This document shows, one piece after another, positions 4,705 to 55,272 of a stretch of DNA of 64,000 nt. This stretch comes from a virus. How positions within the stretch are numbered: position 1 is the stretch's first letter; every line of letters starts with the position of its first letter. Where the stretch lies: IMG/VR virus record IMGVR_UViG_3300027573_000964. One strand, given 5' to 3'. The notes under the pieces were generated by a model. That model saw nothing but the letters and a program-made list of their open reading frames with translations. It was not told where the DNA came from and made no database searches. The translations under genes were made by a program, and so were the position numbers.

Positions 4705-5760
4705 TTAACTCAGAGCATAGTCATATATAATATCACTGCACAATTCATCTAAAGCAGGCCTGTCGGGTTCTCTTGGTAGTTTAGAAGTTTCATACGCTGT
4801 TACAATCTCTGTTTCCATCTTTTCAGCGTATTCCTCTATTTGCTCATATTTCCAGGCACCATTTCGGATTGCCAAAAGTTCTTCTCTATCTGGTCGATAT
4901 ACTTGAACTTTTCCAGTCTCTAAGATTTCTTTACCCATACGCATAAGTCTAACTAAATGCGCAGCATGTTTAGTATCATATCCGTGCTTTTCTTCTAATG
5001 CCGAACGAGCCGCATTACGAGTATTTTTCCAGCTTTGATAAGAGTTCCATTTCGTAAGAGCATTTTCATACTCTTTCTCTTTAAATACAGCCTGCATTAA
5101 ACCATCTGAAAAATTCATAGTAGTCTTAAGTAATTCCATTTGTTCTGGAGTAAAACTATGAGATTGAACTAAACCGATATAGTTTAATTTTGATAGCTCT
5201 TCTTTAGCTGCGTCTGTTAATAGAGTGTATTGAACAGAGTCTTCTAACATCTTTGCGATGAGCCAATCTATGCCACCCATACCATCCTTGGAAAGTATTT
5301 TTCTATCAGGTAATCCAAAGTCGGACCGTTCTGGCTTTCCCTTTGGTGGATTTAATAAATAGCCTCTATGGTTCTTTATACGCTTTAATTGAGCAAAGGC
5401 ATAACCGGTATAGGTATAGCGGGCCTTTTTAGAAAGAAAAGCATCACGCTTGTCTAATACACGCTCCCAATAAGGTGTTATTTTTTGATAGAACTTGCTG
5501 TCTGTAAAGAGCAAATCCAGCATATTAGGGTTACAATCACTAATGAGCTTGAAGGCCTTACGGATATCGTATATAACTGTATCCTTGGTTGGGTCTTCGT
5601 ATTGCTCAAAGTGCTTTAAAAAGCCCGTGTAATAGCCTACGTCGTCCGGTATTGCGATTCCGCGGATATCTATGTCGCTGGTAGGTGTATTTGTACCATA
5701 CGCCGTAGAGCCCGTTATAGTGGAAAATATGGTACAACGCTCAATATCAGTTTTTTGCAT
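4705..5760 (-). CDS. Pol-beta superfamily nucleotidyltransferase (function unknown; minimal-NTase / class-I CCA-like head)
   Basis: 351 aa; GSTAYGTNTPTSDIDIRG = GS-x9-13-DxD NTase signature. Confidence 0.5.
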   Translation of the reverse strand: MQKTDIERCTIFSTITGSTAYGTNTPTSDIDIRGIAIPDDVGYYTGFLKHFEQYEDPTKDTVIYDIRKAFKLISDCNPNMLDLLFTDSKFYQKITPYWERVLDKRDAFLSKKARYTYTGYAFAQLKRIKNHRGYLLNPPKGKPERSDFGLPDRKILSKDGMGGIDWLIAKMLEDSVQYTLLTDAAKEELSKLNYIGLVQSHSFTPEQMELLKTTMNFSDGLMQAVFKEKEYENALTKWNSYQSWKNTRNAARSALEEKHGYDTKHAAHLVRLMRMGKEILETGKVQVYRPDREELLAIRNGAWKYEQIEEYAEKMETEIVTAYETSKLPREPDRPALDELCSDIIYDYALS

Positions 5761-6616
5761 CTAATAAACTTTCTTCTGCCTCTATTGATATTGCGCTTGG
5801 CATTCTACCGCCGCACAATATACAGCAATCTTTATATATATACCTTGATAAGTTTGTTCTTTGGAAACCCACACTGGTTCGTGTTCTTGAGCTTTTTAAA
5901 GTAAGTTCGAACTGACCACAATTACCACAGTTTCCTTTAAGAGAAACCATACCAGGCTTTCCAAGATTTATAGACTCTTGATACTTCTTCCAAATAACTT
6001 CAGCTCGCTCACGATGTCTTAATACAGAACCAAATAACAAAGTCTTAAATTCTTCGCCGTCTCCTACTTTCTCAAATATATTATAGGCCAAGTGATTATT
6101 TGATAGTAATGATTCTAGTGCCTTGAGCCTGCCTACAGATGGCAACTCTTTCAGAGCTTCTATTCTAGGAGTATATCTTGCTTGATATATTCCATCTGGG
6201 CAACTTTTGTTGTGCGCTAGAAATCTCAAAGCATTTGCTTCTTGCTCTATAGTTATACCTTCATACATAAGAGAAAGTTTGCCCACGGCTATATCTTCAC
6301 TATTTACTACAAGTTCTCTAATTTCATTTTTACTATCATATGGTATTATTTCAGTTAACAGCTTACACAATCCGTAAGATTTTGAAGCATTATAGTTTGT
6401 TCTCGAAAAAGCGGCCTTTGCCAATTCCATTTTAGTTTGCAGTTGTGGCACAGCTTTAATAAGAGTTGTAACACCATCTATATACCAATAATATCTGGAT
6501 TCACTATTTTGTTGTAAAAAGAAAGCTATGGTTTCATCCTTGTCCGCTTGGCTTGCTGCATTAAAATTTCTTACCAGCCCATAATAGTGCCAAGAGTCTT
6601 TAAATGTATAACTCAT
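5747..6616 (-). CDS. hypothetical protein with C-terminal Cys4 zinc ribbon
   Basis: 289 aa; GNCGNCG...CCILCGG; stop/start adjacent to Thg1-like gene. Confidence 0.5.
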   Translation of the reverse strand: MSYTFKDSWHYYGLVRNFNAASQADKDETIAFFLQQNSESRYYWYIDGVTTLIKAVPQLQTKMELAKAAFSRTNYNASKSYGLCKLLTEIIPYDSKNEIRELVVNSEDIAVGKLSLMYEGITIEQEANALRFLAHNKSCPDGIYQARYTPRIEALKELPSVGRLKALESLLSNNHLAYNIFEKVGDGEEFKTLLFGSVLRHRERAEVIWKKYQESINLGKPGMVSLKGNCGNCGQFELTLKSSRTRTSVGFQRTNLSRYIYKDCCILCGGRMPSAISIEAEESLLDAKN

Positions 6617-7374
6617 TATTCTGCCTTGAAGTCTAAAATCTCTTTCAGGAAGTTTCGATCCTGTGAGAATATTGGAAGGTCTTTATCTATTTCCCAAGCA
6701 GACCTTTCAACTGTTGTGCCATCATTAAGAGGAACAACGTATTTCTTTTTATAACAACCAATCCCTCGTTTAAAACTTGCGGGATAATCATTCCAGTTTA
6801 TTCCAGTTTTTTGGAATAGTAATTCTTGTAGCTCTGCACCTCGAAGCCCGTGCATGAGCTTTTGTGTCGTCTTTCTGCCTTCTTTAGCACTCACTTCGTA
6901 ATAGGCTGCTGCTTGGATACTATTTTTAGTAGCATCCCTCTGGCGCCATACTAGACAGTTAATTGCTTCGTCTAATGTAGGCACAGCAAACACTCTCGTA
7001 TCGAAGTATGCCTGTCGCCCAGTCACTTGAGATGCAAAATAAGCAGTGAATAATGAAGAGGTTATGCTAACCATCTTCTGTATTCGATTGTTGAACCAAG
7101 GCTGACTTTCATCAGACTGATCGTTTCTTAACACGAAAGTTGATTCATCCGATTGTGTATAACCGAATAAGCAACCCTCTATACTTGAAGCTGTAAATCG
7201 TGTAGTTTCGGCCATAGCTTTCATTAGAGTTTCGTCAAATGGTTTCTTAAAGCCCATCGCTTTTGTATATTTAGAGAAACCTTTGCCATCCACACGAATA
7301 ACAATAGGTGTTCGAGCCTGCATTTTAAAATCGTAGCAGTCTTCGTACGCCTTCATTCTGTCGCCAAGATTCAT
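6616..7374 (-). CDS. Thg1-like protein (tRNA-His guanylyltransferase family 3'-5' nucleotidyltransferase)
   Basis: ORF 6616..7413; likely start at second Met (ATGA overlap with upstream stop). Motifs IVIRVDGKGFSKY and GYTQSDESTFVL align to Thg1 VVVRLDGRNF / AYGQSDEYSFVF; FDTRVFAVPTL...WRQRDA matches Thg1 C-domain. Confidence 0.8.
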   Translation of the reverse strand: MNLGDRMKAYEDCYDFKMQARTPIVIRVDGKGFSKYTKAMGFKKPFDETLMKAMAETTRFTASSIEGCLFGYTQSDESTFVLRNDQSDESQPWFNNRIQKMVSITSSLFTAYFASQVTGRQAYFDTRVFAVPTLDEAINCLVWRQRDATKNSIQAAAYYEVSAKEGRKTTQKLMHGLRGAELQELLFQKTGINWNDYPASFKRGIGCYKKKYVVPLNDGTTVERSAWEIDKDLPIFSQDRNFLKEILDFKAE

Positions 7375-7679
7375 TGTGGTACCAGTGTTAAGTGTTCTGC
7401 GGGAAGGATACATTCATTATAGTAGCCGTAGTATTTTCCCCACTGCAAAGGAAGATGTCTGTTTGGTATTCCAAAAGTCATTTCCATATATTTTCTTATT
7501 CTATCGTGTCTAGCAAAAATAGTTCGGTCGAATATTACTGTATATAAATCACTATCTGCAACTCTACCAGCAATACTACCAGTAACTTCCACCGTATCCC
7601 AGTGCGAACTGCCCATTTTAGCTACATACTTTACTTTATTTCCGTATCCAAAATTACCAGGAGTCAGTGTTTGGGTCAT
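7371..7679 (-). CDS. hypothetical protein
   Basis: 102 aa ORF. Confidence 0.45.
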   Translation of the reverse strand: MTQTLTPGNFGYGNKVKYVAKMGSSHWDTVEVTGSIAGRVADSDLYTVIFDRTIFARHDRIRKYMEMTFGIPNRHLPLQWGKYYGYYNECILPAEHLTLVPQ

Positions 7680-8394
7680 ATTGTAATCCCTGTGGTTTGG
7701 GTATATAAAATCCCTTATGATGATATTTTAATACTCGTTCTACGAATGGAAGAGCTATATTGCCCTTGGTTCCAAATATGCTTTTAACTTTAGATAAGAA
7801 ACCAGAAACATTCTTTTCTATGTTCAGATGTAAGGTTCTTGTAATTAAATCAGCTATGGCTTCTCTGTTAGAATAAAAGGTATCACAATCTATAGCAAAC
7901 TTACACACACTTATATCGAAATTGTCTATAATTTCTAACGGCGAACCAAACAAACTTACTGGCGTTCCGTCATGCAGTTTCTTATTCTCTGCGTCACCGG
8001 CACCCACCACCTGTAAAATGACACCCTCTTCTTTATTAAAGAATGTTTTTGCGTAAGTCGTGTCGTTAGTTTCAATAAAATCATATTGTTCTACAAATAA
8101 AGCGAAACTGCTTGCTGCATCTTTATTTCTAAAGAAGAAATCTATATCATTACTAGAATCATCTTGCAAAAGCCAGGCTAACACAGCGCCGCCAGACATA
8201 AATCCATTGTGACTTAACAACCAATGAAGCCTTGGGTCTTCTAAACCCATTTGACTTTTAAATTCATTGTAAGGAACTATAATATTTTTATGTACAGTTT
8301 CTTTTTTATATACGCCATATGGAATATTATTGTGCTTTTTTATTTCTAAGTCGGACACCTGGCAAAGAAATTTAACTTGCTCTTGCGTTAGCAT
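7654..8394 (-). CDS. hypothetical protein, possible nucleotidyltransferase fold
   Basis: 246 aa; MSGGAVLAWLL...NDIDFFF resembles G[GS]...DxD NTase motif. Confidence 0.4.
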   Translation of the reverse strand: MLTQEQVKFLCQVSDLEIKKHNNIPYGVYKKETVHKNIIVPYNEFKSQMGLEDPRLHWLLSHNGFMSGGAVLAWLLQDDSSNDIDFFFRNKDAASSFALFVEQYDFIETNDTTYAKTFFNKEEGVILQVVGAGDAENKKLHDGTPVSLFGSPLEIIDNFDISVCKFAIDCDTFYSNREAIADLITRTLHLNIEKNVSGFLSKVKSIFGTKGNIALPFVERVLKYHHKGFYIPKPQGLQYDPNTDSW

Positions 8395-8603
8395 TACATT
8401 CCTTTAAGGATTTCTTGTTCTAATTTAACTTTAAGATTTGCCATACCCTTTATAATATCATATAGCTTATTTCGTTCTACTTGCAACATATCGTAATTAC
8501 AACAAGTGGGCATACCAAATACTTCAACTTGTCTTTCGGTGGGCTCATCCATTAAGTCACCACAATAAATACATATTCTAACTGGGTCTATCATTTCGCT
8601 CAT
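8394..8603 (-). CDS. hypothetical zinc-ribbon protein
   Basis: 69 aa; CIYCGD...CCNYD. Confidence 0.45.
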   Translation of the reverse strand: MSEMIDPVRICIYCGDLMDEPTERQVEVFGMPTCCNYDMLQVERNKLYDIIKGMANLKVKLEQEILKGM

Positions 8604-8778
8604 GAGCTTCTCCGATTCATTTAATAGTAAAGATGGAATTTTGGGTAAATAGAACGGTCTGTATATATTGCTACATACATCATTTGATAACCATCACCAA
8701 GACGTTCGTAAGGTCGAGTCTCTGTTTTAATGATTTTATTCTTAAGCAACACATAGTACAATTCTAATATATCAGGAT

Positions 8779-9438
8779 TCATTTTGCTAACAAATTTCTA
8801 GTTACCTGTTTGTGTATCCAGTGACCATCGTCTTCCATATTCTTTACGAACTCTTCTCTAACCACTTTGCCCTTCATTCCATTGCGGTGATTCCAGACAA
8901 CTATACCTTCCGCCGGTTCAGAGCCACATGCTGATGGGTCAGGGATTAAATCGAACAATTCGGTTTTATCATAATGACCTTGGCATATGAATGGGGTAGT
9001 TGCTAGTCCTATCTTGTCGCAAAGCTCTTCCATATCCATACGATGCTTAAATTCGTCCGTCTTTCTATCAACCCACGCAAACGCTAGAAAGTAATCAGGC
9101 AGCTTATCATAGAATACAGTGTGTTTAGCATACATCAATTCGCCGTATAACACTGTGCCCTCTGGTATCTGCATCAGCTTATCTTGGTTAAGCTGACTCC
9201 AAGCCTTGAAGAAGTTGAACTGTTCGTGCTCACTCATATCTACTAGAGAACCACGCTTTTGTAGCTTGAAGGTATCTTTGTGACGCACTATGCCAACATT
9301 AGCACCATCAACCTTTTCAGTAATAGTGACCGTTCCGCCTAATAGTAATTTAGTTTCTGCATCCGATAAATAGTGCTTGCCTTTAACATCAATTTGGGGC
9401 ACTAAAATGCGGTATGTCTTTTCATATTTGCGGAACAT
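8779..9438 (-). CDS. Rnl2-family polynucleotide ligase nucleotidyltransferase domain protein (KxDG-N), stand-alone
   Basis: 219 aa; TITEKVDGANVGIV matches K-x-[DH]-G-x-N motif I of Rnl2/REL ligases; no C-terminal domain. Confidence 0.5.
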   Translation of the reverse strand: MFRKYEKTYRILVPQIDVKGKHYLSDAETKLLLGGTVTITEKVDGANVGIVRHKDTFKLQKRGSLVDMSEHEQFNFFKAWSQLNQDKLMQIPEGTVLYGELMYAKHTVFYDKLPDYFLAFAWVDRKTDEFKHRMDMEELCDKIGLATTPFICQGHYDKTELFDLIPDPSACGSEPAEGIVVWNHRNGMKGKVVREEFVKNMEDDGHWIHKQVTRNLLAK

Positions 9439-36707: not shown

Positions 36708-37188
36708 TCAATACCTCTATTGCTCTTTTAGCATGACGCCGCGCAATGCCTTCTGAAAAGTTAGTCTGAACTAAGAACGGCATTAAATGATCCATATCAT
36801 CACAGTCATCAATGATAACAAAACTCTCTATTTCGATGTCAGGATTTTCATTCATCCACTCTTGAATTTCACCACCACGCCCATAAGTTCCTGGTTGTTG
36901 ATGATTGGGCGTTATGCCTATAATCTCTCCAACCACACCACGAAAATGTAGATAGTCAGCAAGATAAGAATAATTTTCAAATAAAGTTCGCCACATACTT
37001 GATATAACTATTTTGGCGCCAGTCTTTAATATAACTTCGTTGAGGTTAGCGACGCACTCGACATCGAACTCTGGATATAGCTCATTGGGATTTATGGAGC
37101 CTGGCAATCTGACGCCCTTATGGTATATCTCTGTTTGGGTAATGACGTTGTTCAACACGCCATCAATATCTAGAAATAAGATTTTCAT
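36667..37188 (-). CDS. HAD-superfamily hydrolase (paralog 1)
   Basis: 173 aa; MKILFLDIDGVLNN motif I; VIIDDCDD motif. Confidence 0.6.
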   Translation of the reverse strand: MKILFLDIDGVLNNVITQTEIYHKGVRLPGSINPNELYPEFDVECVANLNEVILKTGAKIVISSMWRTLFENYSYLADYLHFRGVVGEIIGITPNHQQPGTYGRGGEIQEWMNENPDIEIESFVIIDDCDDMDHLMPFLVQTNFSEGIARRHAKRAIEVLSVRKEEISQGKLP

Positions 37189-37589
37189 TTTAACAACTGA
37201 CCGGCCAAAAAGCCTATACCAGTAAAGACATCAACTTGAGAGGCTTTGAAGGGAAACTCTATACTTATACCCTGTATATTATTAACAAATATCCTCATGA
37301 ACAAGTCTTTTTCCTCAAATTCCCAAATCCAATTTTTGTGACTTCCGGTCCAACAATAAGTTTGCTTGCCTAATTTTTCTTTAAAAAATTTTACCAAGTC
37401 TTTCACGCCACGTTTATGTATGTCGTCAGAAAGTTTCATATAGTGGTAGGCATATCTCTTTCGATATGTGTGATCTTTTAGTAAATTAATTGCTGGAGTG
37501 GTGGGTCTATGATTTAGTGAATCTTCAACTTTCATTTTAACATCTCTATAGCAACATTTACATGATGGTCTTCTAATCCATTTTGCCAA
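37185..37589 (-). CDS. hypothetical protein
   Basis: 134 aa ORF. Confidence 0.5.
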   Translation of the reverse strand: MAKWIRRPSCKCCYRDVKMKVEDSLNHRPTTPAINLLKDHTYRKRYAYHYMKLSDDIHKRGVKDLVKFFKEKLGKQTYCWTGSHKNWIWEFEEKDLFMRIFVNNIQGISIEFPFKASQVDVFTGIGFLAGQLLK

Positions 37590-38023
37590 CTCGTCTTAAT
37601 TAAAAGCGGCGAAAGATGAAGCATATCACTGTCATCATCCAGGATAACAAAGCTCTCTACCTCGCCGACAGGCTGCTCTGACAACCATTCTTGTATCTCT
37701 AATCCACGACCATATGTCATTTCACCACGGATATAAGACTTAGCAAATCTTGGCGTCTTGCCAATAATTTCACCAGTCACACCTTCGGAATGTAAATACT
37801 TAGCGAGTAATTCTACATCATCAAATAATATACGCCAGCTACTAGATATGACCATCTTGGCACCAGTAGCATTAGTAATCTTATTTAAACGAGCAACACA
37901 ATCTGGGTCTAACTTACTTACACCATATAGATTAGCGGTAAATCCTTCGGGCTGAACTCGGGGATTAGAAACACTTTTAATGGTATTAATAACGCCATCA
38001 ATATCTAAAAAGATTATCTTCAT
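37532..38023 (-). CDS. HAD-superfamily hydrolase (paralog 2)
   Basis: 163 aa; MKIIFLDIDGVINT; VILDDDSD; close paralog of 36667..37188. Confidence 0.6.
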   Translation of the reverse strand: MKIIFLDIDGVINTIKSVSNPRVQPEGFTANLYGVSKLDPDCVARLNKITNATGAKMVISSSWRILFDDVELLAKYLHSEGVTGEIIGKTPRFAKSYIRGEMTYGRGLEIQEWLSEQPVGEVESFVILDDDSDMLHLSPLLIKTSWQNGLEDHHVNVAIEMLK

Positions 38024-42824: not shown

Positions 42825-43027
42825 TTAACTGGGATAACTTGGCTTTTACTATAATCGAAATTGAGTGCAGTAATCTTTCCTGGCTTTTGAGTCTCTTGCT
42901 CTTCCATCCAAAGCCAATAGTCTTGCTCACCTTGTTCGCAGAGCCAAGATTTAAATTCTTTAGCCGCTTCTTCGGTCTCAAACTTAAAAGTAAGTTTGGT
43001 TTTATCTTCTTGTTTCTTCTCTGCCAT
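42788..43027 (-). CDS. hypothetical acidic protein
   Basis: 79 aa. Confidence 0.4.
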   Translation of the reverse strand: MAEKKQEDKTKLTFKFETEEAAKEFKSWLCEQGEQDYWLWMEEQETQKPGKITALNFDYSKSQVIPVKCGRIDEKEGVR

Positions 43028-43151
43028 AGATATATTCCTTTGTGATTTGGCTCCCGCAGCTGGATTTGCACCAACATCTCTCTGGTTAGCTCACGACCGG
43101 TCGAAGCTATCCTTGTGCGATAATAAAAGTTATACGATACGGGAATAAATT

Positions 43152-43230
43152 TGGTGGGCAGGGATGGATTTGAACCACCGACCCTCGGGCCAAAAACGCC
43201 CGATGCTCTAACAGGCTGAGCTACCTGCCC
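43152..43230 (-). tRNA. tRNA with anticodon loop GUUUUUG (UUU, Lys-like) and 6-bp anticodon stem; atypical
   Basis: RC GGGCAGGTAGCTCAGCCTGTTAGAGC-A-TCGGGC-GTTTTTG-GCCCGA-GGGTC-GGTGGTTCAAATCCATC-CCTGCCC-A-CCA. Confidence 0.6.
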
Positions 43231-43235
43231 TCGAA

Positions 43236-43442
43236 TTATAATATTGCGAATGCCACTGATAGTCTATATAAGAATAACTGCCAAGCGTATAACCCAGACT
43301 CACGATCATACACACGATTTATTGAAAATAGATGGTCTCTACGCTTTCTATTTTCGTAAGTGACCCAAGGTGTTCCACGTTCAGAGATATCGAAACCTAT
43401 AAATAGTCGGCCTATTTTAAATGTCTTAACCGTGGCTTTCAT
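43236..43442 (-). CDS. hypothetical protein
   Basis: 68 aa ORF. Confidence 0.4.
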   Translation of the reverse strand: MKATVKTFKIGRLFIGFDISERGTPWVTYENRKRRDHLFSINRVYDRESGLYAWQLFLYRLSVAFAIL

Positions 43443-43621
43443 TTTTTAGTCTCATAGTATGTTACTTCGAGCCCAACAATTTCTTCGCCGTCTTCAGATT
43501 CTACATGAGATATATAGGCGTCGTCTGGAATGTTGGGGTATGTTTTACGCAACATATCAATAACATCCTCTTTGCTTATCTCTATTATTGTCTCTATTTT
43601 TTGTGTTGTTTTAGTTTTCAT
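43439..43621 (-). CDS. hypothetical protein
   Basis: 60 aa ORF. Confidence 0.4.
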   Translation of the reverse strand: MKTKTTQKIETIIEISKEDVIDMLRKTYPNIPDDAYISHVESEDGEEIVGLEVTYYETKK

Positions 43622-43784
43622 TTAAACCACTGTGCGCTAAGCATCTCTTACAGGTGATGCTGTGATTGTCAGTTGTACTATTTTCTATTCTAACCTTTTG
43701 ACCACAAATAGTTACTGCGTAATAAAGCCTGCCGATGCCACTTGGTTCTGGTTGGTCTATGTCCATAATTTTTTTGTGTATCAT
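43611..43784 (-). CDS. hypothetical zinc-binding protein
   Basis: ORF 43611..43832 trimmed to internal Met MIHKKIMD because first 16 codons lie in suppressor-tRNA gene. Confidence 0.4.
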   Translation of the reverse strand: MIHKKIMDIDQPEPSGIGRLYYAVTICGQKVRIENSTTDNHSITCKRCLAHSGLNEN

Positions 43785-43797
43785 GTTACTCTCGATT

Positions 43798-43872
43798 TGG
43801 CGCCCCGAGGAGGAATCGAACCCCCGACGCACCGATTTAGAGTCAGCCGCTCTGCCGCTGAGCTACCGGGGC
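43798..43872 (-). tRNA. tRNA with anticodon CUA (amber/UAG-reading suppressor-type tRNA; Lys-like anticodon arm)
   Basis: RC GCCCCGG-TA-GCTC-AGCGGCA-GAGC-G-GCTGA-CTCTAAA-TCGGT-GCGTC-GGGGG-TTCGATT-CCTCC-TCGGGGC-G-CCA; U33, anticodon C34-U35-A36, A37. Confidence 0.75.
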
Positions 43873-44090
43873 AAGTGTTCTGGTGAATAACATCTCTTGT
43901 CTGCGTGTAGAACTATTTGTCCATCAGACAATCTATATATAAACTCTTGAAGAGGTATTCTGGATTCAACATATGTGTTGCCCATAGATATTCCCCATCC
44001 CTGTCTATTATAATCAACAGCTGATAATTTATTAAATGGCCATTTCTCTATAAAAAATTCCATATACAATTTGAGAACAATGTCATTCAT
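43863..44090 (-). CDS. hypothetical protein
   Basis: 75 aa ORF. Confidence 0.4.
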   Translation of the reverse strand: MNDIVLKLYMEFFIEKWPFNKLSAVDYNRQGWGISMGNTYVESRIPLQEFIYRLSDGQIVLHADKRCYSPEHLPR

Positions 44091-44365
44091 CTTATAGCGA
44101 ACCAGTATTCATTCATTTCTTTTAGAAACTTTTTACTTATAGTATAGTCGCTATCACTACCAATAACAGAATCAATACCGCACTTAGGGCATAGTGCGGT
44201 ATCTCCTGCGTCTATCCATTCTTTAATCTCACTGAACTTAAAATGGTTGCAGCAATAAAAACACCCTATAACTGCACTATTTTTTAGCTCTTCTTTATGA
44301 TTGGAAGAATGTTCATGAGCCTGTATTATCTTCTCTTGGTTCGCCAAGTTCAACCTCTGGTTCAT
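44087..44365 (-). CDS. hypothetical zinc-binding protein
   Basis: 92 aa; CFYCCNH...CPKCG. Confidence 0.4.
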   Translation of the reverse strand: MNQRLNLANQEKIIQAHEHSSNHKEELKNSAVIGCFYCCNHFKFSEIKEWIDAGDTALCPKCGIDSVIGSDSDYTISKKFLKEMNEYWFAIR

Positions 44366-45440
44366 TTAAACCAATCATTTCTTCCAATGATTTAATTTGC
44401 ATATCAGCTACATAACGCTTAAAGTCAGGCGTCTTGCCGTATTTCATTTGAAACATAGCATCGGAAAATGATTGCGTAGTGGCCATCTTTGCGAAGTCCT
44501 TGCGCTCTTCTATGTGCTTAATGCCATCATAGAAGCCTTCCATTCTACCCAACAACCGCTCATACTTATAACGAATGTTATTATATTCATCGGTAAATTC
44601 AGGATAGTAAGAAAGGAATTCGCTTCCTTCGTTGGTACGAACTAGCTCTAACAACTTGCGCCTGCTCATCCCAACACTGTCTCGTAAGTGAGATACAGCA
44701 ACGTATTGAGGAGACTTTACTTTAACGCGGTTGTAGTTGGAATCACAAACAACATAGCCTTCGCATTCCATGGGTTCAAGCGTTTTAGCAGCTTCAACTA
44801 TTTCATCCCAAGAAGTTAGAGGGAATATTTTTACACATTCCCAGCCGTAGTGGTGAGCTTCTATTACAGGATTTAATTCTTTGAAGTCGGACAAACGACG
44901 AGCACCATGCAATACTATACGATCTTCTAAGTGACGAACCACTACACGATTCTTGGCAGTCATCATCTCGAACATATAGCAAACATTAGTATCGGTAGGA
45001 AGTTTGTATCCTAACTTTTTCCAAACTTGCCAGAACAACTGAGAGAAAGTTATATCATAACCATTCACTTCACCAGCCGCATCGGGCAATCCAGAAGAAG
45101 AAACTTGCCAAGCGCCGTCATAAAAATACAACGTCATTAGCGAGCCATCTAATTTTTCATATACGCGCGCAGAAGACCAATCTATATCGTCAGCGTGTCC
45201 TTCGCCATAGTTAAAAAACTTGGAATAAGGAAATGAAACAACCTTCCAGCCTTGCGCCTCATCGAGTATTAAACCACGGCATTGCTGAACAACTTTAACA
45301 CCCATAGGAGAGTTAATTTGGTCATACTTCAATAACACAAGGTTATTATACTTACCGTGACGCTTCGCAGCTATCTCAAACTTGTCGCATAACTTATCAA
45401 GTCCGTGCGCCTTTATATAATCTACTACCTCTAAGTTCAT
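44313..45440 (-). CDS. rnlA: RNA ligase 1 (T4 RnlA/gp63-like)
   Basis: 375 aa; QCRGLIL...KFFNYGE...VYEKLDGSLMTLYFYDGAW aligns to T4 Rnl1 ECRGIMF...KFFNLNE...ILTKEDGSLVSTYLDGDE; EGYVVCDSNYNRVKVKS vs EGYVAVMKDGSHFKIKS. Confidence 0.85.
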   Translation of the reverse strand: MNLEVVDYIKAHGLDKLCDKFEIAAKRHGKYNNLVLLKYDQINSPMGVKVVQQCRGLILDEAQGWKVVSFPYSKFFNYGEGHADDIDWSSARVYEKLDGSLMTLYFYDGAWQVSSSGLPDAAGEVNGYDITFSQLFWQVWKKLGYKLPTDTNVCYMFEMMTAKNRVVVRHLEDRIVLHGARRLSDFKELNPVIEAHHYGWECVKIFPLTSWDEIVEAAKTLEPMECEGYVVCDSNYNRVKVKSPQYVAVSHLRDSVGMSRRKLLELVRTNEGSEFLSYYPEFTDEYNNIRYKYERLLGRMEGFYDGIKHIEERKDFAKMATTQSFSDAMFQMKYGKTPDFKRYVADMQIKSLEEMIGLNEPEVELGEPREDNTGS

Positions 45441-45645
45441 CCCACATTCCCTTACGAATATAAATATTAAGAAAAGATTTCATTTCTTCTTCATCAGGAT
45501 CTAAAATGTCCGTATATTTATTTAGTATTCTTTTCATATCAATTAAAGGCCGCTCTAATCCTATTTCATTAGTTAGCGCAGTAAGATATAAATCTTTATG
45601 TAATTGATTCATCTTGAAGTCGAGCGGCTTCTTCTCTAATAGCAT
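45397..45645 (-). CDS. hypothetical protein
   Basis: 82 aa ORF. Confidence 0.4.
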   Translation of the reverse strand: MLLEKKPLDFKMNQLHKDLYLTALTNEIGLERPLIDMKRILNKYTDILDPDEEEMKSFLNIYIRKGMWDELRGSRLYKGART

Positions 45646-46012
45646 GTGTCATTGTAGCTTGCATGGCTTCTAACATAACCTTGCTATCTAACTGGTCTCT
45701 TAAAACTACCTTACCCTGTTCATCACTAAAGGTTAAATATACCTTGCCCTGAAGTTCAATGCCCATACTATGTGCATTTGATTCTATTTCCGCCCGTTCA
45801 GCTTCGGTTAGCAGTTCGTTCTTAAGCCACCTAGTAAATTTTGGTGCAGCAAAACATGCAGCGCCAAGAAGAAGTCCTAGTCCTTCGGATAACTTCCCAC
45901 CAACAACGCAATATATGCATCCACCAATTAGCATCCAAACAGTTTCTTTTGGGTCATAGTCTTTCCATACCCAATTCCAAACTGCTAATGCTTTACTAAG
46001 TAACTTCTTCAT
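45596..46012 (-). CDS. hypothetical membrane protein
   Basis: 138 aa; TM segments. Confidence 0.45.
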   Translation of the reverse strand: MKKLLSKALAVWNWVWKDYDPKETVWMLIGGCIYCVVGGKLSEGLGLLLGAACFAAPKFTRWLKNELLTEAERAEIESNAHSMGIELQGKVYLTFSDEQGKVVLRDQLDSKVMLEAMQATMTHAIREEAARLQDESIT

Positions 46013-46020
46013 AAATACTC

Positions 46021-47148
46021 CTAATGAAACTCGCTGTTCTTTTTATCTAGCTTGAAGGTCTCGCTTACATATTTTAATATAACGCGACCACATCCTGGAT
46101 ATTTTCTTTCACGCTTGGGCTTTATTACTATGCCCTCACGAATGAACTTCTTTCCGTTATATTCATCAACAGCTTCGGATAATTTAGTAACAGCAATACT
46201 CCAGGGGCCTCTATAAGCAACTGATACCGTAGGCAGGTTGTGTGCCATACAGGTATAAACTACTTTGTCCCAATCCAAGTATTCTCCATCAACCATAATA
46301 TCGAATACACGAAGTTCTAATTCACCTTGAGGTATTCCATAATCATACCCAGTTTGAATACCAGGCCCAATGATTTCCCCAAAAATAGTTACTTCAGATA
46401 CACCATCAGATAACTCTTTTGTGATGTTGCGTAAATCATACTTATCAGCAACTCGCCAATAAGTATCGTTTATGTCTGTTCCTCTTTTAGACTTTTGTCT
46501 AATAGTGTTGTGAGAGCCAACAAGGGATTCCATATTAGGAACGCTAAAGCCAAAGAAAGATTTAACTTTCTCCCACCGTGTATAAGACTTTTTAGGGCGT
46601 TTGACATAGCCACACCGGAAGTTCGTTCCGTGATATTTAACGGTGGCTATGACTTCCTCGCCTTCTACGAAGTTACGAGGATACTTTTTAAAGCTTTCGA
46701 TGTCAGTATATTTCTTAAAGTTCTCGTTAGTATAGTGATGATTGATGCCCTTTGACTTAAAAGCACTCTGACCTCTTGGAGGTGGAGGCTCATATTTAGT
46801 TACGCCTAAATACTCTGTAACATCTTGGTCTTCTTTGATAAGTTCGGGCGGCAACCACGCACTGGGGGTTAAACAAAGTCCGTCAGAAAATACGCCACGA
46901 ATTTTAGTGCATCTAATACGACCCTCTTTAACTTCTATTTTTTGAGTAGTAGTTAAATAGATTCTAATATTCTCTGGAACTACACTGTTTTCTGGAATGA
47001 ATAAAGCAAGGTCGCCGCTTTTAAATTGGTCTTTGCCAACAATAGCAGCAAATCCACCTTCGCCGCCTATAGTAGCTATCTCTAACTTATCAGCGTTAGG
47101 ATGTGGAACAATCTCCACTTTTGATACTTTTACACTTACGGTACTCAT
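46021..47148 (-). CDS. Rnl2-family RNA ligase fused to N-terminal Myf/EMAP-type tRNA-binding domain
   Basis: 375 aa; N-terminus VKVSKVEIVPHPNADKL...IVGK...GDLALF...IRGVFSDGLCLT = tRNA_bind (Trbp111/CsaA-like) signature; then TVKYHGTNFRCGYV = Rnl2 motif I (KxHGxN) and EVTIFGEIIGPGIQ = motif III. Confidence 0.75.
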   Translation of the reverse strand: MSTVSVKVSKVEIVPHPNADKLEIATIGGEGGFAAIVGKDQFKSGDLALFIPENSVVPENIRIYLTTTQKIEVKEGRIRCTKIRGVFSDGLCLTPSAWLPPELIKEDQDVTEYLGVTKYEPPPPRGQSAFKSKGINHHYTNENFKKYTDIESFKKYPRNFVEGEEVIATVKYHGTNFRCGYVKRPKKSYTRWEKVKSFFGFSVPNMESLVGSHNTIRQKSKRGTDINDTYWRVADKYDLRNITKELSDGVSEVTIFGEIIGPGIQTGYDYGIPQGELELRVFDIMVDGEYLDWDKVVYTCMAHNLPTVSVAYRGPWSIAVTKLSEAVDEYNGKKFIREGIVIKPKRERKYPGCGRVILKYVSETFKLDKKNSEFH

Positions 47149-47320
47149 CTGCTAAATACTTCTCCAAAAATATCGTGAGTTCTTCTAAATAATCCACATC
47201 CATATCGTCGCCGAGCCACATGGCATCGCGTGCGTGACAGCTAAAAAATCGCATACCACACTTGCAACATTCATTGGGCCACGTTTTACGAGCTTCAGCA
47301 TATTCGGCAGGCTCAACCAC
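47096..47320 (-). CDS. hypothetical protein
   Basis: 74 aa ORF. Confidence 0.4.
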   Translation of the reverse strand: MVEPAEYAEARKTWPNECCKCGMRFFSCHARDAMWLGDDMDVDYLEELTIFLEKYLADEYRKCKSIKSGDCSTS

Positions 47321-47396
47321 ACGAAATAAATCTATTATATCTACGGGCTTTCGTTCTTGAAAGTATAATAATAGATATAGATTTCTTATATTAATA

Positions 47397-48272
47397 TCAA
47401 TATTCTTCGTCTCCCAACATTATATTATAAACATAGGACATGCTGCCTTCGTTCATATCACTATCCATTACTTTACCGGCGAGTATCTCCGAAACTATAT
47501 TATTTAACTTCATTTGAGACTTTAGATATGATGATTGAGAGCCACTACCGCACGGAGGAAATATACTTCTTCTTAAACAATTCATTCCTCTTACGAATGC
47601 CATTTGTCGCATGTGTAAAGTGGCTAAAGTTTCTACTAACTTATTGTTTTTCTTTTTAGCCTTACTTCTATTTTCTTCTACAAACGAACTTATGATATGG
47701 TCGTATTGACGAACTTCAAATCCACCAAGTCTAACTGGTATCTCATACTTGAATAAATCAGCCATTAATTTAGTCTCTCGGTCTAATTTATCCCCATATT
47801 TTTCTACGAGTTTTTGTATATCTGGGGTTTCATCTAATACAGCCGTCTTTATCTTTAGGGTAGATGCTGCTCTATCGTAGTCTTCTTCTCTAGCAAATTG
47901 TTCAACTACCAAATCAAATGCCTTCTTATGGGCCATAACATAACCCACAGGAGACTCTTCAAGTTTAGGATTGCCTACTTTTAATTCTCCTTCATGTGCG
48001 GCCGAAAGAAAATCCCCAAAGTCTTTTATTTTAGTAGCATGAAGGATAATTTTTACTGGAATGCTATGCTCATCATAATCTTCTATGGCGCCATAGTCGT
48101 TATACGCACCATCAATTGGGAAGGTAAGAGGATACGCCGCATCAGTAGCATACACAAGTCCGGTATAATTCCTGTCATTAAATTTATTAAAAGCCAACGG
48201 AATTAAAACAGTGGGCTCGCCAGCCACCAACGGAAGGTTGGTTATTACACAAGTTCCATTAAAACAACCCAT
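47397..48272 (-). CDS. hypothetical protein
   Basis: 291 aa ORF. Confidence 0.55.
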   Translation of the reverse strand: MGCFNGTCVITNLPLVAGEPTVLIPLAFNKFNDRNYTGLVYATDAAYPLTFPIDGAYNDYGAIEDYDEHSIPVKIILHATKIKDFGDFLSAAHEGELKVGNPKLEESPVGYVMAHKKAFDLVVEQFAREEDYDRAASTLKIKTAVLDETPDIQKLVEKYGDKLDRETKLMADLFKYEIPVRLGGFEVRQYDHIISSFVEENRSKAKKKNNKLVETLATLHMRQMAFVRGMNCLRRSIFPPCGSGSQSSYLKSQMKLNNIVSEILAGKVMDSDMNEGSMSYVYNIMLGDEEY

Positions 48273-48290
48273 TATCTATCCCTCTTCGTT

Positions 48291-48369
48291 TGGAGGCTGA
48301 GGTAGGATTCGAACCCACATAATCGGGCTTTGCAGGCCCGCGCTTGAAAACCAGTTCAGCCACTCAGCC
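48291..48369 (-). tRNA. tRNA-Cys(GCA)
   Basis: RC GGCTGAGTGGCTGAACTGGTTTTCAAGCG-CGGGC-CTGCAAA-GCCCG...GTGGGTTCGAATCCTAC-CTCAGCC-T-CCA; U73 discriminator. Confidence 0.8.
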
Positions 48370-48370
48370 G

Positions 48371-48949
48371 TTAATCGCCACCACCACCACCACCACCGGA
48401 ATCACCGCCTCCACCACTGTCATATCCGCCGCCGCCAGAATCATAGCTACCACCGTAGCTGCTTCCGCCATCGTATGAACTGCCGCCATAGCTACCACCA
48501 CTATCGTGTGAGCTGCTACTTCCAGTATCACAGCTGCTGCTATCACTGAGGCTTGGAGTACAGCTTTCTGGGGCTGGAGTTGTCTCAGTTGGTTGAGCTG
48601 GTTGATTCATAGAGTCCATTATGACAGCCGCAGCAAGGAAGGATGCGGAGTCATCAGAAGTGGTATCACTTGTTCTACTTGGCTGTGCATTAGTTTTAGC
48701 GGCCACAACAGAACTCGGACTTCTCGTGGATACTGGAGTTTGTCTCGTAGTGGAAGCGGAAGATTTGGTTATATTCCGTCCGGCTAAATCACCGCCGACC
48801 TTATTGCCAATTTGACGATAAGTGGTATCTTCATCGTCGTAGTCATCGTCCATATAATTAACTCTACGACTGGTTTTACCTCCGCTCAATACCATAACTG
48901 CAAATAAGCCTACAACAATTATACCACAAAATAGAAGCACTACCATCAT
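48371..48949 (-). CDS. single-pass membrane protein with Ser/Thr-rich linker and Gly/Ser/Tyr/Asp-rich repetitive C-terminal tail
   Basis: 192 aa; N-terminal TM helix, then low-complexity repeats GGSYGGSSYDGGSSYGGSYDSGGGGYD. Confidence 0.55.
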   Translation of the reverse strand: MMVVLLFCGIIVVGLFAVMVLSGGKTSRRVNYMDDDYDDEDTTYRQIGNKVGGDLAGRNITKSSASTTRQTPVSTRSPSSVVAAKTNAQPSRTSDTTSDDSASFLAAAVIMDSMNQPAQPTETTPAPESCTPSLSDSSSCDTGSSSSHDSGGSYGGSSYDGGSSYGGSYDSGGGGYDSGGGGDSGGGGGGGD

Positions 48950-48963
48950 TTTATAATTCCTTT

Positions 48964-49116
48964 TTATTCTTGTAATAAGAGTTTGAGTGTTGATTTAATT
49001 TGATTATTAGACAACACGTGATGTTCATCATCACCATAAGTATCTTGATGATACTCTTGAACAGCCTTCTTAATCTAATCAAGAAGCTTCTTATCTGTTA
49101 AGTTATTCTTCTTCAT
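48964..49116 (-). CDS. small ORF with in-frame TAG at codon 14 (13 aa to TAG; 50 aa if TAG is decoded)
   Basis: ATG AAG AAG AAT AAC TTA ACA GAT AAG AAG CTT CTT GAT TAG ATT AAG ... CAA GAA TAA; 36 stop-free codons follow the TAG in frame and fill the otherwise empty intergenic gap. Confidence 0.3.
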
Positions 49117-50044
49117 TTAATTCTTTCGGGGCCAATTTTCTAAACTCGGTCATCATGCTATTATATACTGGCTGATATTTATCTTTATAATACTGCCAGT
49201 TATTCTCAGGATTTTCTACTATTTCTCTCCAATAGTTATTTGCGGCAGAATAATCACTTATCCTACCGTCTCTGGCTATTTGGATTCCAAAGTTAATTAT
49301 CCTTAAAGAATGAAATAAGCTCTTCTTACCTATATAGGGATTGAAATCTTTTTCAACTGTTAATTTCTTTTTCGCTTTAACAAAACTATTGGAAGCCTTT
49401 TCGGATATAGAGCGACGAAGAATATCTTTCCTGAATATATAATCATTGAAATTAATACTACTATATAATATATTCTTTGTTGGAAGAAATGCACATTCTA
49501 AAGCATCTATCTCGTGCAAAGCTATTCGACTTAAAAACTCTACCAGATTATAAATATTTATATTAACTGGTAGGTTTATTTCACTTTGTTCAACTTTAAT
49601 TTCCTTATTAGGAATTGGTTCATCAACCACTAATATATAATCAAAGTCGGACTGTTCAGTGGCACATCCATACACTTGAGAGCCATATTGGTATAAGCCA
49701 AATATTTTTCTATCATCTATGCCTTCGCTATTAAGTATTTTGATAAGCGTAGATAAGGTAGGCTCTGAACTATACATATCTATAAATGGCGCTGTCCTAT
49801 TTATAAGCTTTGTTTGCCAGTAATTAGTCACATCGAATGTTTTGCTATATAGGGAATAGAAATGGGCATTCCATATATGTGATATACTACCGGGTTGATT
49901 CGCTAACAAGTATTCCCAATAGAAATTTCTAAAGTTAATTTTAGGATGAGCGTCTTGTAGAAGTCTGATTAAGTATGAGACCTTAACAGAATCTTGTAAT
50001 TCTTTATCTAAATCCATTTGGAACCAACACTTGAAGCGGCTCAC
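49103..50044 (-). CDS. Pol-beta superfamily nucleotidyltransferase (function unknown)
   Basis: 313 aa; YGSQVYGCATEQSDFDYILVVD NTase motif. Confidence 0.5.
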   Translation of the reverse strand: MSRFKCWFQMDLDKELQDSVKVSYLIRLLQDAHPKINFRNFYWEYLLANQPGSISHIWNAHFYSLYSKTFDVTNYWQTKLINRTAPFIDMYSSEPTLSTLIKILNSEGIDDRKIFGLYQYGSQVYGCATEQSDFDYILVVDEPIPNKEIKVEQSEINLPVNINIYNLVEFLSRIALHEIDALECAFLPTKNILYSSINFNDYIFRKDILRRSISEKASNSFVKAKKKLTVEKDFNPYIGKKSLFHSLRIINFGIQIARDGRISDYSAANNYWREIVENPENNWQYYKDKYQPVYNSMMTEFRKLAPKELNEEE

Positions 50045-50888
50045 CCAAATATATTTTAACTTCCGAGCCTCTATTAAATGGTCGTTCTTCCCATGAGTCT
50101 ATGCTTATGTGCCCATCATTGTCGTTTAGTGAATAGACCTTTATCTCTTCGCCTTCTTCTAACCAACCGCTATGTGGTGAACTTCTAGCACCTTGGCTAT
50201 ATGCTTCTGTAGTAAGGAATGAGGCAACCTTATCCTTAGGTTCCCAAGTAGAAGTTACTCCATCGCTGAGAGCTGATTTATACCAGCCAGTAGAACCCGC
50301 GCCAGTTGCCACTATTAGACCAGAACATTTTTGTTCTATTTCTTGTCCCTTATATACCAGCACATGACGAGACATATATTTACGCAAACGCTCACCAAGA
50401 AAATACTCACTGGTAGCTGGAGTAAGTTTTGCTCCATCCAAAGTTGCTTCTAATCTAGCCCAGCTCTCTATATTAAAATCGTTGAAGTCTAATGCTTCAA
50501 CCAAATCATATACATCTTGCTCGGTCTTGATAGCGCATCTTGTTAAACATCCAGAGCTTCTATCTGGGTCCGAATTAATACCAAGTATGGGCGTAGAATG
50601 AACGAAGTGACTTGCGTAGGTGAAGGAATTATCTCCACCTAATATAATAATCAAGTCGTATAAATTAACCGCAACTTTAGGAACATCCTCTAACATGACT
50701 ATGTTGCACTGAAAAGCGGATGTGAATAGTTTCCTAACCGCCAACTGCTTTTCGTGACTCTTTAATATAGCCTCAACATTAGCCCGCTCTTTAGAATACT
50801 TGGCTAATATTTGGTCTTGGCTTTGACCAGAGCATTTCATCTCCCATTCGAGCTTGGAATACTTGGCTACTATTAAAGCGTTCATCAT
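50004..50888 (-). CDS. NAD kinase-like protein (PpnK / DAGK_cat fold)
   Basis: 294 aa; ILGGDNSF (GGDG-like) and IVATGAGSTGWYKSA (cf. NadK ATPTGSTAYSLSAGGP). Confidence 0.45.
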   Translation of the reverse strand: MMNALIVAKYSKLEWEMKCSGQSQDQILAKYSKERANVEAILKSHEKQLAVRKLFTSAFQCNIVMLEDVPKVAVNLYDLIIILGGDNSFTYASHFVHSTPILGINSDPDRSSGCLTRCAIKTEQDVYDLVEALDFNDFNIESWARLEATLDGAKLTPATSEYFLGERLRKYMSRHVLVYKGQEIEQKCSGLIVATGAGSTGWYKSALSDGVTSTWEPKDKVASFLTTEAYSQGARSSPHSGWLEEGEEIKVYSLNDNDGHISIDSWEERPFNRGSEVKIYLGEPLQVLVPNGFR

Positions 50889-51248: not shown

Positions 51249-52091
51249 CTATTTCGTCCTCCGTTTAAAACTCTTAACATAGTTCTCTGCGTCTTTTTCA
51301 GCTGCTTTTGAGTGTTCTAATTGAAACTCAATCAACCTCTTGCGTATTTTATTGCTTTCATAATCATTACAATCTGTTAGTTCTTTAATTCTATCATCAG
51401 ATACTAATGGCTGCAATGCCTGAATGGCCTTTGGGTTCATATCTAGTATCAATTGTATCATACTCATATGATATGTAAAATCGAAACTGTCAAATATGTT
51501 CCTATCCTTGCCAGAGGCATCGGCCATACTAACCAATATAGCATACTTCCAGTCGTCACCAAGATGTCTAATGAACTTACCTATGGTCTTGCGCGAAGAC
51601 GGACACTTCTCGTTAGTAGGAACATAGCTAGGATTAACCATCCTAGCACCGTCAATGAGCAGCTTCACTCTGTTAATTTCTCTTTCAGTTACATCAGAGA
51701 AACTCTTTAGAATATACTCAGCTGCCTTCAAACTATACTCTTCGTGACCAATATAAGTGGTTCTAGTCCTACCACCAACAGTTTTCTTGCCATGAACTTT
51801 GGTATTTAGCTTACCCAAATCATGGAATAAGATAGCACAATTCATAGCGAAACGGTCTTGGCTGCTAGTGTCTGGAAAGTATTTAGAATAGATTTTTTGT
51901 AGATTGCCAAGTGCCTCAAGTGAATGCTCAAACACATTCAGCTTGTGCCAAGGCGTATTCTGATCCATCTCCCAAGCCAAATAGCCTTCTGGAAACTTGA
52001 ATATATTATACAGTTGATTCTGTTCTTTGAGTGCCAATACGCTACTAACTGGGTCCTGGCTGGTCATAAGAGTTCTAATAGTCTCGGTCAT
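51249..52091 (-). CDS. HD-domain phosphohydrolase
   Basis: 280 aa; WHKLNVFEHSLE ... AILFHDLGK (HD motif, CCA-enzyme-HD-like). Confidence 0.6.
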   Translation of the reverse strand: MTETIRTLMTSQDPVSSVLALKEQNQLYNIFKFPEGYLAWEMDQNTPWHKLNVFEHSLEALGNLQKIYSKYFPDTSSQDRFAMNCAILFHDLGKLNTKVHGKKTVGGRTRTTYIGHEEYSLKAAEYILKSFSDVTEREINRVKLLIDGARMVNPSYVPTNEKCPSSRKTIGKFIRHLGDDWKYAILVSMADASGKDRNIFDSFDFTYHMSMIQLILDMNPKAIQALQPLVSDDRIKELTDCNDYESNKIRKRLIEFQLEHSKAAEKDAENYVKSFKRRTK

Positions 52092-53736: not shown

Positions 53737-54419
53737 TACATATCCATAAAAGAACGACGAGGTAAAATAGGCCCTGTCGGTAGGATGCCCTTGGGATTAG
53801 TCGTATATCCCTCGAACCATGGCGCCGTAGATGGCATTGATAGTCTAACAAACTGTCTGCTTACCGGCTTATATTGGGGTATAGATTCATGAACACATAG
53901 ACCACCCATCCAATAAGCAACATTGGCTTTGAGTTCTATTGGCTCTTTAAGCTGAGGTCGCAAATGTTCGCAGTCACCTTCATCACCGGGAAAGCCAACG
54001 AAGTCTTGGTTCCATGCTCTACAGCCAACGTGACTGGCTATTGAAATCATTCCACTTTCAACAGAACCCCAACCACCGCCGCCACCCCATGATCCTGGAT
54101 TAGTAGTGCCGCCCCAAGAACCACCTCCACCCCACGAGCCGGCTGATAGTTTAGGTCCGATGCCATCTACATGTAAGCCAGCTCGTCTATGCGTGCGACC
54201 ATCGGCAACAATCTTTTCGTCTATAGTTAAATAAGCTACGCCAGTCTTACACGGCGCAACTTTGCACAGAGCGTCATAGGCTTCACGCCAATGTGACAGG
54301 TCATCCGGTAGAGAGTCCAAGTCAGACAACAATACGGGCAACATCATAACTCTTGTGTCGGTGAAGGCGGGTAGTTGAATAGAGCCCTCTTCTCTAATAG
54401 GACTATTGAACATTTGCAT
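53736..54419 (-). CDS. hypothetical protein with SWGGGG repeats
   Basis: 227 aa; SAGSWGGGGSWGGTTNPGSWGGGGGWGS. Confidence 0.5.
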   Translation of the reverse strand: MQMFNSPIREEGSIQLPAFTDTRVMMLPVLLSDLDSLPDDLSHWREAYDALCKVAPCKTGVAYLTIDEKIVADGRTHRRAGLHVDGIGPKLSAGSWGGGGSWGGTTNPGSWGGGGGWGSVESGMISIASHVGCRAWNQDFVGFPGDEGDCEHLRPQLKEPIELKANVAYWMGGLCVHESIPQYKPVSRQFVRLSMPSTAPWFEGYTTNPKGILPTGPILPRRSFMDM

Positions 54420-55050
54420 TTAGCTTCACCAACAACGAATCGCCCTTCTCGATAATCTTTACGCCTTTTTCTTTCATTTCTGCTACGGCCTTAGCACCAT
54501 CTTCTGGTTGAAGGTTAACAGCTCTACAACCGTCTAGCACTAAATTAGTCTTGAAACCCAAGCTAACAGCATCTAATGCGGTAAATTTCACGCAGTAGTC
54601 AGTAGCTAGGCCGAGTACGAACAACTCAGTAGCACCAACATCTCGTAAATAACCAGCGAGCCCAGTTGGATGCTTACGTCCGTTGTCAAAGAAACCACTG
54701 TAGCTATCTACTTCTGGATCCATTCCTTTACGGAATATAGCAGCAAGCCTACCGCCCAACAAGTTTTTGTGGAACTCTGCGCCTTTGCTGCCCCATGTAC
54801 AATGCTCTGGCCACCACACTTGAGGTAATCCATTGAGTGTGCCTAATGTACCAACCTTAACATCTTTGTTATTAGAAGCAAAGCTCTTGTGCGTCGGAGG
54901 ATGATAGTCTTGAGTTGCTACTATCAAATCAAACTTACCCTCAACTATGAGACGGTTAGCTACGGGAACAACGGCATCACCATCTTTGACAGCCAATGCC
55001 CCGCCATTACAGAAATCGTTTTGTATATCTACGAGTACTAATGTCTTCAT
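54403..55050 (-). CDS. pncA: nicotinamidase / pyrazinamidase (isochorismatase family)
   Basis: 215 aa; LVLVDIQNDF (Asp), K, LGLATDYCV (Cys) catalytic triad context. Confidence 0.8.
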   Translation of the reverse strand: MKTLVLVDIQNDFCNGGALAVKDGDAVVPVANRLIVEGKFDLIVATQDYHPPTHKSFASNNKDVKVGTLGTLNGLPQVWWPEHCTWGSKGAEFHKNLLGGRLAAIFRKGMDPEVDSYSGFFDNGRKHPTGLAGYLRDVGATELFVLGLATDYCVKFTALDAVSLGFKTNLVLDGCRAVNLQPEDGAKAVAEMKEKGVKIIEKGDSLLVKLNANVQ

Positions 55051-55062
55051 CTTGCTTCTCCA

Positions 55063-55272
55063 TTATTCGTGTTCCAATCCCCATTTAGAATTGTTCCACA
55101 ATCTTTCATAAATATAATATGTTACGAACGCTATAGTTGTTCCCGCTATTGATATACGCAGAGATAAAGTCATATCTCCGGTAAAGGCGTATGATATTAT
55201 TGTTCCTCTTGCAAAGGCAATAACTCTCCATATTGTTGCTTTTAATAGTGTTCTCTTAATAGTCTCTTTCAT
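55063..55272 (-). CDS. small membrane protein
   Basis: 69 aa; two hydrophobic segments. Confidence 0.4.
   Translation of the reverse strand: MKETIKRTLLKATIWRVIAFARGTIISYAFTGDMTLSLRISIAGTTIAFVTYYIYERLWNNSKWGLEHE

Follow-up and report, generated by a model that had tools for sequence, protein, structure and literature searches.

The 64,000-nucleotide window analysed here (IMG/VR record IMGVR_UViG_3300027573_000964) is part of a 468,446-bp metagenomic contig (ENA ERZ27267619 k141_116371) of a huge phage, which has 38.6% G+C and nearly all of its genes on one strand. At 46021..47148 on the minus strand the window contains a complete gene for an RNA ligase of 375 amino acids (aa), with an ATG start and the stop codon at 46021–46023; the plus strand of the same interval is interrupted by many stops. 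The ligase consists of an N-terminal OB domain and a C-terminal adenylyltransferase (nucleotidyltransferase, NTase) domain, and belongs to the Rnl5 family, whose characterised members are DraRnl of Deinococcus radiodurans and NgrRnl of Naegleria gruberi. The coordinates in a preliminary description of this DNA were exact, and the motifs HPNADKL, KYHGTNF and GEIIGPGIQ reported there are all found in the translation.

Architecture and family of the ligase

Assignment of the protein to Rnl5 rests on five independent lines of evidence; family membership, domain architecture, conservation of the catalytic residues, fold and gene context are established for the phage ligase itself. An OB module of about 126 residues precedes the NTase domain, and nothing is appended C-terminal to the latter: the lysine of motif V (K359) sits 16 residues from the protein end, so the ligase has no C-terminal domain, a lack that also defines Rnl5 (PMC4408790). 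All aligned homologues (38 sequences, down to 37% identity) open with MS(T/K)... at the same position, in support of the start codon. This alignment fixes the start despite a Cys-rich open reading frame (ORF) of 74 aa at 47096–47320 on the minus strand (CCKCGMRFFSCH...), a gene call in the ENA contig that covers the first 53 nt of the ligase gene.

The preliminary description had proposed domain annotation and structure modelling as checks, and both bear out the two-domain layout. In Pfam, PF21189 (‘PHA02142 OB-fold domain’) matches residues 10–93 (E 3e-10) and PF09414 (RNA_ligase) residues 164–361 (E 8e-24); the structure model has high confidence, and both of its domains superpose on the crystal structure of NgrRnl. 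The protein passed the NCBIfam equivalog TIGR02306 (RNA_lig_DRB0094) by a modest margin (159.5 bits vs a cut-off of 151.15, E 9.5e-47), with residues 10–366 aligned to positions 8–339 of the 341 in the profile, and PHROG 968 (‘RNA ligase’) matches residues 6–371 (E 4.7e-45). In the PDB, a single-sequence query matched the N domain of NgrRnl (E 9e-9) and a profile of the 38 homologues matched both of its domains (E 9e-31). DraRnl, taken from the D. radiodurans MP1 megaplasmid, aligns to residues 1–374 with 28% identity (E 3e-33). The Rnl2 family, to which the protein had at first been assigned, was rejected: TIGR02307 gave 39 bits vs a cut-off of 197, and the C-terminal alpha-helical domain of Rnl2 is missing.

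The residues shown to be essential in DraRnl (PMC1807946) were mapped onto the phage protein. T163, K165, H167 and G168 correspond to T169, K171, H173 and G174, and R79 of the N domain to R77; S212, E258, E338 and K359 are also kept (E338 and K359 for E305 and K326), and W316 stands for F281. Position 213 is the exception and is weighed below. K121 of NgrRnl (in LGITKWEPP), which contacts the ATP gamma-phosphate, aligns with K118 of the phage protein (LGVTKYEPP). R77, K118, K171, H173, G174, E258, E338, G339 and K359 are invariant in the 38 homologues, and T169 and S212 nearly so. Based on the alignment, K171 is predicted to be the AMP-accepting lysine. The longer motif III string FGEIIGPGIQ spans residues 256–265. 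The C-terminal tail is also conserved, with a nearly invariant terminal His375, and the structure model has low confidence there.

Concerning the N-terminal region, the preliminary description had likened it to the tRNA-binding OB folds of Trbp111, CsaA, the MetRS C-terminus and PheT. At the superfamily level the likeness holds in both fold and remote sequence homology: the profile of 38 homologues matched in the PDB the MetRS C-terminal domain (2.5e-5 and 6e-5), PheRS beta (1.5e-4), a tRNA-binding protein (3.7e-4), YgjH (5.7e-4) and the EMAPII-like domain of TyrRS (5e-3), and the pheT_bact model matched over the B2 region (E 0.005). Strict membership of tRNA_bind (PF01588) was rejected, as the N-terminal 127 residues alone scored 15.6 bits (E 0.018) vs a Pfam gathering threshold of 27. 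By descent the OB domain belongs to the tRNA_bind (Trbp111/CsaA/PheRS-B2) lineage, a kinship that was already known.

Table 1. Features of the ligase gene and of the window around it.
Feature	Position	Strand	Match or remark
N-terminal OB domain, residues 1–126	46771..47148	−	
HPNADKL, OB domain, residues 16–22	47083–47103	−	
LGVTKYEPP linker with K118	46783–46809	−	within OB-domain region; family-wide
C-terminal NTase domain, residues 143–375	46024..46722	−	
Motif I KYHGTNF, residues 171–177	46618..46638	−	aligned to DraRnl and to NgrRnl K170; translation-checked
Insertion of ~24 residues (184–207) between motifs I and Ia	46528..46599	−	RPKKSYTRWEKVKSFFGFSVPNME
Motif Ia VGSHN (S212, H213)	46507..46521	−	S212 = DraRnl S185
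Motif III FGEIIG (E258)	46366..46383	−	DraRnl E230, NgrRnl E227
Motif IV REGIVIK (E338)	46120..46140	−	DraRnl 305-EGVVV, NgrRnl E312
Motif V ILKYV (K359)	46066..46080	−	DraRnl K326, NgrRnl K326
C-terminal tail ...LDKxNSExH	46024–46050	−	
RlaP NTase	4705–5760	−	Pfam PF10127, E 7e-20
Thg1 (3'-5' polymerase)	6616–7413	−	Pfam PF04446, E 9e-32
Stand-alone RNA ligase, 219 aa	8779–9438	−	Pfam PF09414, E 5e-27
18 tRNA genes	15529–48369	all −	ARAGORN
308-aa protein, weak N-terminal PTH2 (peptidyl-tRNA hydrolase) match	within 24364–26427	−	E 2e-5
269-aa R2K-type ATP-grasp protein	within 24364–26427	−	PF14243/PF18299
Two HAD ‘Swiss-army-knife’ (HAD-SAK) RNA-repair phosphatases	36667–37188, 37532–38023	−	PF18143, E 1.9e-27, 1.5e-30
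tRNA-Lys, downstream of the ligase pair	43152–43230	−	ARAGORN
CTA-anticodon tRNA (amber-suppressor type), downstream of the ligase pair	43798–43872	−	ARAGORN: tRNA-Pyl
Rnl1-like RNA ligase	44313–45440	−	Pfam RNA_lig_T4_1, E 1.3e-17; PHROG 562, E 4e-41; motif EKLDGS
tRNA-Cys, upstream of the ligase	48291–48369	−	ARAGORN
192-aa protein, hydrophobic N-terminal segment, Ser/Gly/Asp-rich tail ending in poly-Gly	48371–48949	−	no family match
Pol-beta-type NTase	49103–50044	−	no match to Pfam RlaP
HD protein	51249–52091	−	
Nicotinamidase/isochorismatase	54403–55050	−	
NAD synthase	55256–57256	−	
Band_7	57268–58176	−	
NAPRTase	58186–59625	−	
NADAR	60060–60527	−	
Acb5-family match	about 61050–61292	−	

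Genomic neighbourhood and homologous loci

Genes for RNA repair, tRNAs and NAD salvage make the window an island of a type that has been described for jumbo phages (PMC7824862). It encodes three unrelated ATP-dependent RNA ligases: the Rnl5 protein, an Rnl1-like ligase and a stand-alone ligase of 219 aa. The Rnl1-like ligase is encoded downstream of the Rnl5 gene on the same strand, at a distance of two small genes; this ligase is a divergent member of its family, since it scores far under the TIGR02308 cut-off (45 vs 242 bits) and has no sequence match in the PDB. The 219-aa ligase consists of the NTase domain only, without an accessory domain, and forms a second RNA-repair cluster (4705..9438, minus strand) with RlaP and Thg1; this cluster also encodes a protein (7654–8394, minus strand) that matches Gad2 (PF26128) in a precomputed annotation. 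A PDB sequence search with the Rnl1-like and the 219-aa ligases gave no match at E 0.01 or better. The Rnl5 protein has no significant pairwise similarity to the 219-aa ligase, and recent paralogy is not indicated.

The 18 tRNA genes, which include two tRNA-Lys(UUU) and two tRNA-Ser genes, are scattered among many small ORFs and do not form a single tight array. The tRNA gene with the CTA anticodon runs into an ORF (43863–44090) at its 3' end and prompted us to consider recoding of TAG; since TAG terminates 15 of the 78 long minus-strand ORFs, the window offers no evidence for it. Three pairs of ORFs in the same frame are split by a single TAG, at 39245, 29221 and 43863. The gene for the 192-aa protein sits between the Pol-beta-type NTase gene and tRNA-Cys. 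The features from 54403 to 61292 (minus strand) form an NAD+ salvage and counter-defence block, and the 308-aa and 269-aa proteins are translation- or conflict-related. A scan of 43000–50200 for sigma-70 promoters and intrinsic terminators gave counts equal to the shuffled expectation.

The same fusion, which the preliminary description had suggested looking for in other genomes, is common. At E 1e-5 or better the databases hold 1140 homologues; almost all of them combine PF21189 with PF09414, and many are labelled ‘RNA ligase (TIGR02306 family)’, among them a protein with 89% identity. Matches are found in 350 GenBank phage records, mostly annotated ‘RNA ligase’ (CcrColossus, Pseudomonas JG004-like phages, Aeromonas phages and mycobacteriophages), and at least 523 IMG/VR contigs carry a relative; phage homologues were pointed out already in 2007 and 2015 (PMC1807946, PMC4408790). 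The close relatives (45–89% identity) are all metagenomic, several of them on contigs of 200–480 kb. No near-identical DNA for 44000–50100 was found among the GenBank phages, a collection that does not include the phage itself.

Looking at the loci of the homologues, a tRNA gene lies within 10 kb in 15 of 60 viral cases (counted without a random-position control) and none does in the other 45, so linkage to tRNA genes was rejected as a trait of the family. Within the same distance of the homologue in 83 other phage loci, HAD-SAK is found about 16 times, RlaP six times and an Rnl1-like ligase three times. A related phage contig of 481 kb carries a homologue with 50% identity near a CCA-adding enzyme, a PTP-SAK phosphatase and an AAA_33 kinase. 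The HD protein of the window has 42% identity with the C-terminal part of a PolyA_pol/CCA-adding-type protein of 514 aa in this contig, and the Pol-beta-type NTase is 47% identical to a gene near the Rnl5 gene of that phage (positions 2667–3491 and 14139–14708 of the related locus, L006). The sequence comparison suggests that a split or rearranged set of CCA-adding/healing enzymes may travel with the ligase.

Proposed mechanism and substrate of the ligase

The phage enzyme is very likely an Rnl5-family ATP-dependent RNA ligase that would serve as the duplex-nick-sealing arm of an RNA-repair/counter-defence toolkit. We infer its in vivo substrate, and also its chemistry, the latter from characterised homologues at 21–28% identity. 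DraRnl and NgrRnl, the only members for which ATP- and Mn2+-dependent nick sealing is known (PMC1807946, PMC4408790, PMC5397189), act on 3'-OH/5'-PO4 nicks in duplexes with RNA as the 3'-OH strand and prefer Mn2+ (PMC4408790, PMC5397189). In the phage enzyme, K171 would attack ATP to give ligase-AMP, the AMP would be moved onto the 5'-phosphate at the nick, and the 3'-OH of the RNA strand would then attack and seal the duplex. Breaks in loops may be covered by the neighbouring Rnl1-like ligase, and RNA ends may be processed by the HAD-SAK phosphatases, RlaP, Thg1 and the HD protein.

Several points weigh against this assignment of function. The identity to the characterised members is low (28% and 21%). 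H213 occupies the place of K186, which is essential in DraRnl; H or R is found there in most homologues. R4, D53 and R149 of NgrRnl are not kept in the alignment, where the phage protein has V4, N54 and S152; R4 and D53 are functionally redundant in NgrRnl (PMC7261155). The insertion at 184–207 is specific to the clade, being a gap in DraRnl and present in all 38 homologues; it is basic (TxWxKxKxFFG) and has a helix at 191–198 in the structure model. A Walker-A motif scan of the coding strand found no polynucleotide 5'-kinase in the window (one irrelevant match). Also, all Rnl5 enzymes are described as having uncharted physiological substrates, and in vivo the family is known by a single phenotype, in Deinococcus DNA repair, namely delayed reassembly of the genome after irradiation (PMC5397189). 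The departures H213 (for K186) and N54 (for D53) could also mark a degenerate or non-catalytic ligase homologue, a reading we consider hardly credible: in the 38 homologues the nucleophile lysine never varies, nor do the acidic and basic residues of motifs I, III, IV and V, the ORF is intact with conserved start and end, and the confidence of the structure model is high.

The preliminary description had proposed a ligase dedicated to tRNA. In this reading, the OB domain keeps true tRNA binding and steers the ligase to broken tRNAs, for example with nicks in the acceptor or anticodon stem; it agrees with the placement of the N domain in the tRNA_bind lineage by structure and profile, with the position of the gene within the array of 18 tRNA genes and between flanking tRNA genes, with the Rnl1-like ligase and RNA end-healing enzymes close by, and with one homologue (P0049) that scores with Pfam tRNA_bind in a precomputed annotation. 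The phage domain itself misses that threshold, however, and three quarters of the viral homologue loci (45 of 60) have no tRNA gene within 10 kb. Deletion of the OB domain in DraRnl and NgrRnl cripples adenylylation and overall sealing and spares step 3 (PMC1807946, PMC4408790), and in the Michaelis complex of NgrRnl the OB residues contact the ATP gamma-phosphate and set the orientation of the pyrophosphate that leaves (PMC7261155). Because of these results, the documented role of the Rnl5 OB fold is catalytic assistance in step 1 and not tRNA capture; this role parallels that of the C-terminal OB domain of DNA ligases, and in Rnl5 the domain was recruited as the catalytic accessory module that is C-terminal in other ligases. 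Since the OB fold aids adenylylation and the characterised members, built with the same module, need no tRNA to seal generic nicked duplexes (PMC4408790), tRNA specificity is not implied. Rnl5 enzymes need a duplex nick, whereas breaks in the anticodon loop belong to Rnl1-type ligases (PMC4408790). A tRNA-dedicated enzyme is therefore not required by the evidence and we regard it as quite improbable. Equally doubtful is a narrower form of the idea, in which the OB domain of Rnl5 in tRNA-rich huge phages would dock tRNA via its ancestral surface, making the enzyme the stem-nick counterpart of the Rnl1-like loop ligase next to it; if true, a physiological RNA substrate would for the first time be defined for the Rnl5 family, and the basic insertion at 184–207 might contribute to substrate recognition.

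A role in phage DNA metabolism, in which the enzyme would seal nicks with a ribonucleotide on the 3' side (RNA-primed or ribonucleotide-containing DNA), is unlikely. DraRnl needs RNA at the 3'-OH end only and tolerates DNA in the 5'-PO4 and template strands, deletion of rnl in Deinococcus slows genome reassembly after irradiation (PMC5397189), and one homologue locus neighbours SSB and YbaB-type DNA-binding proteins; the idea follows from the Deinococcus phenotype. Against it, the neighbours in the window are RNA-repair and tRNA genes and not replication genes, and a separate ATP-dependent DNA ligase gene lies at about 1378–2709. The best-supported physiological reading is, we infer, the sealing of duplex nicks as part of the RNA-repair toolkit of the phage.

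Comparison with known ligases and OB domains

The phage protein is a new member of a well-characterised family, and as a discovery the gene matters little: the preliminary description took the fusion for uncharacterised, but the OB-plus-ligase architecture is what defines Rnl5 (DraRnl, NgrRnl) and has been known for about two decades, with crystal structures and a curated hidden Markov model; Raymond & Shuman 2007 already refers to previous studies of it. For the question of what Rnl5 repairs, the locus is a reasonable one to study. It is suggestive for the physiology of the family because the gene lies two genes from an Rnl1-like ligase, in a tRNA array and near end-healing enzymes. The three unrelated ligases in one window fit the idea that such ligases are specialised and not redundant (PMC7824862).

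DraRnl (DR_B0094) is the founding member of Rnl5/TIGR02306. Like DraRnl, the phage protein has an N-terminal OB domain, a C-terminal NTase domain and no C-terminal module; it shares the KxHG form of motif I, the HPNA(D/E)(K/R)LE motif in the OB domain and the essential residues T163, K165, H167, G168, S185, E230, E305, K326 and R79. It differs in being 33 residues longer, mainly through the insertion between motifs I and Ia, and in its residues at the positions of K186 and F281. Also, DraRnl is encoded on a bacterial megaplasmid beside Dps and GGDEF genes, whereas the phage gene lies in an RNA-repair/tRNA island. NgrRnl (PDB 5cot), the structural exemplar of Rnl5, is 21% identical to the phage protein; its motif I is KxDG (D172), and its OB domain has lost the HPNADKL-type motif which the phage protein keeps.

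Unlike T4 RNA ligase 2 and the kinetoplastid REL1 (Rnl2), the phage ligase has an N-terminal OB fold as its accessory module and no C-terminal alpha-helical domain. Its OB domain is fused to a ligase, unlike the tRNA_bind domains of Trbp111/YgjH, CsaA, the MetRS C-terminus, PheRS beta B2 and EMAPII/p43/Arc1p; in the characterised Rnl5 enzymes the domain positions ATP and pyrophosphate, with no documented binding of tRNA (PMC7261155). The known phage Rnl5 proteins (Aeromonas phage 44RR2.8t, Caulobacter phage CcrColossus, Pseudomonas JG004/PAK_P1-like phages and mycobacteriophages) have the same architecture, but are at most 33% identical to the phage ligase.
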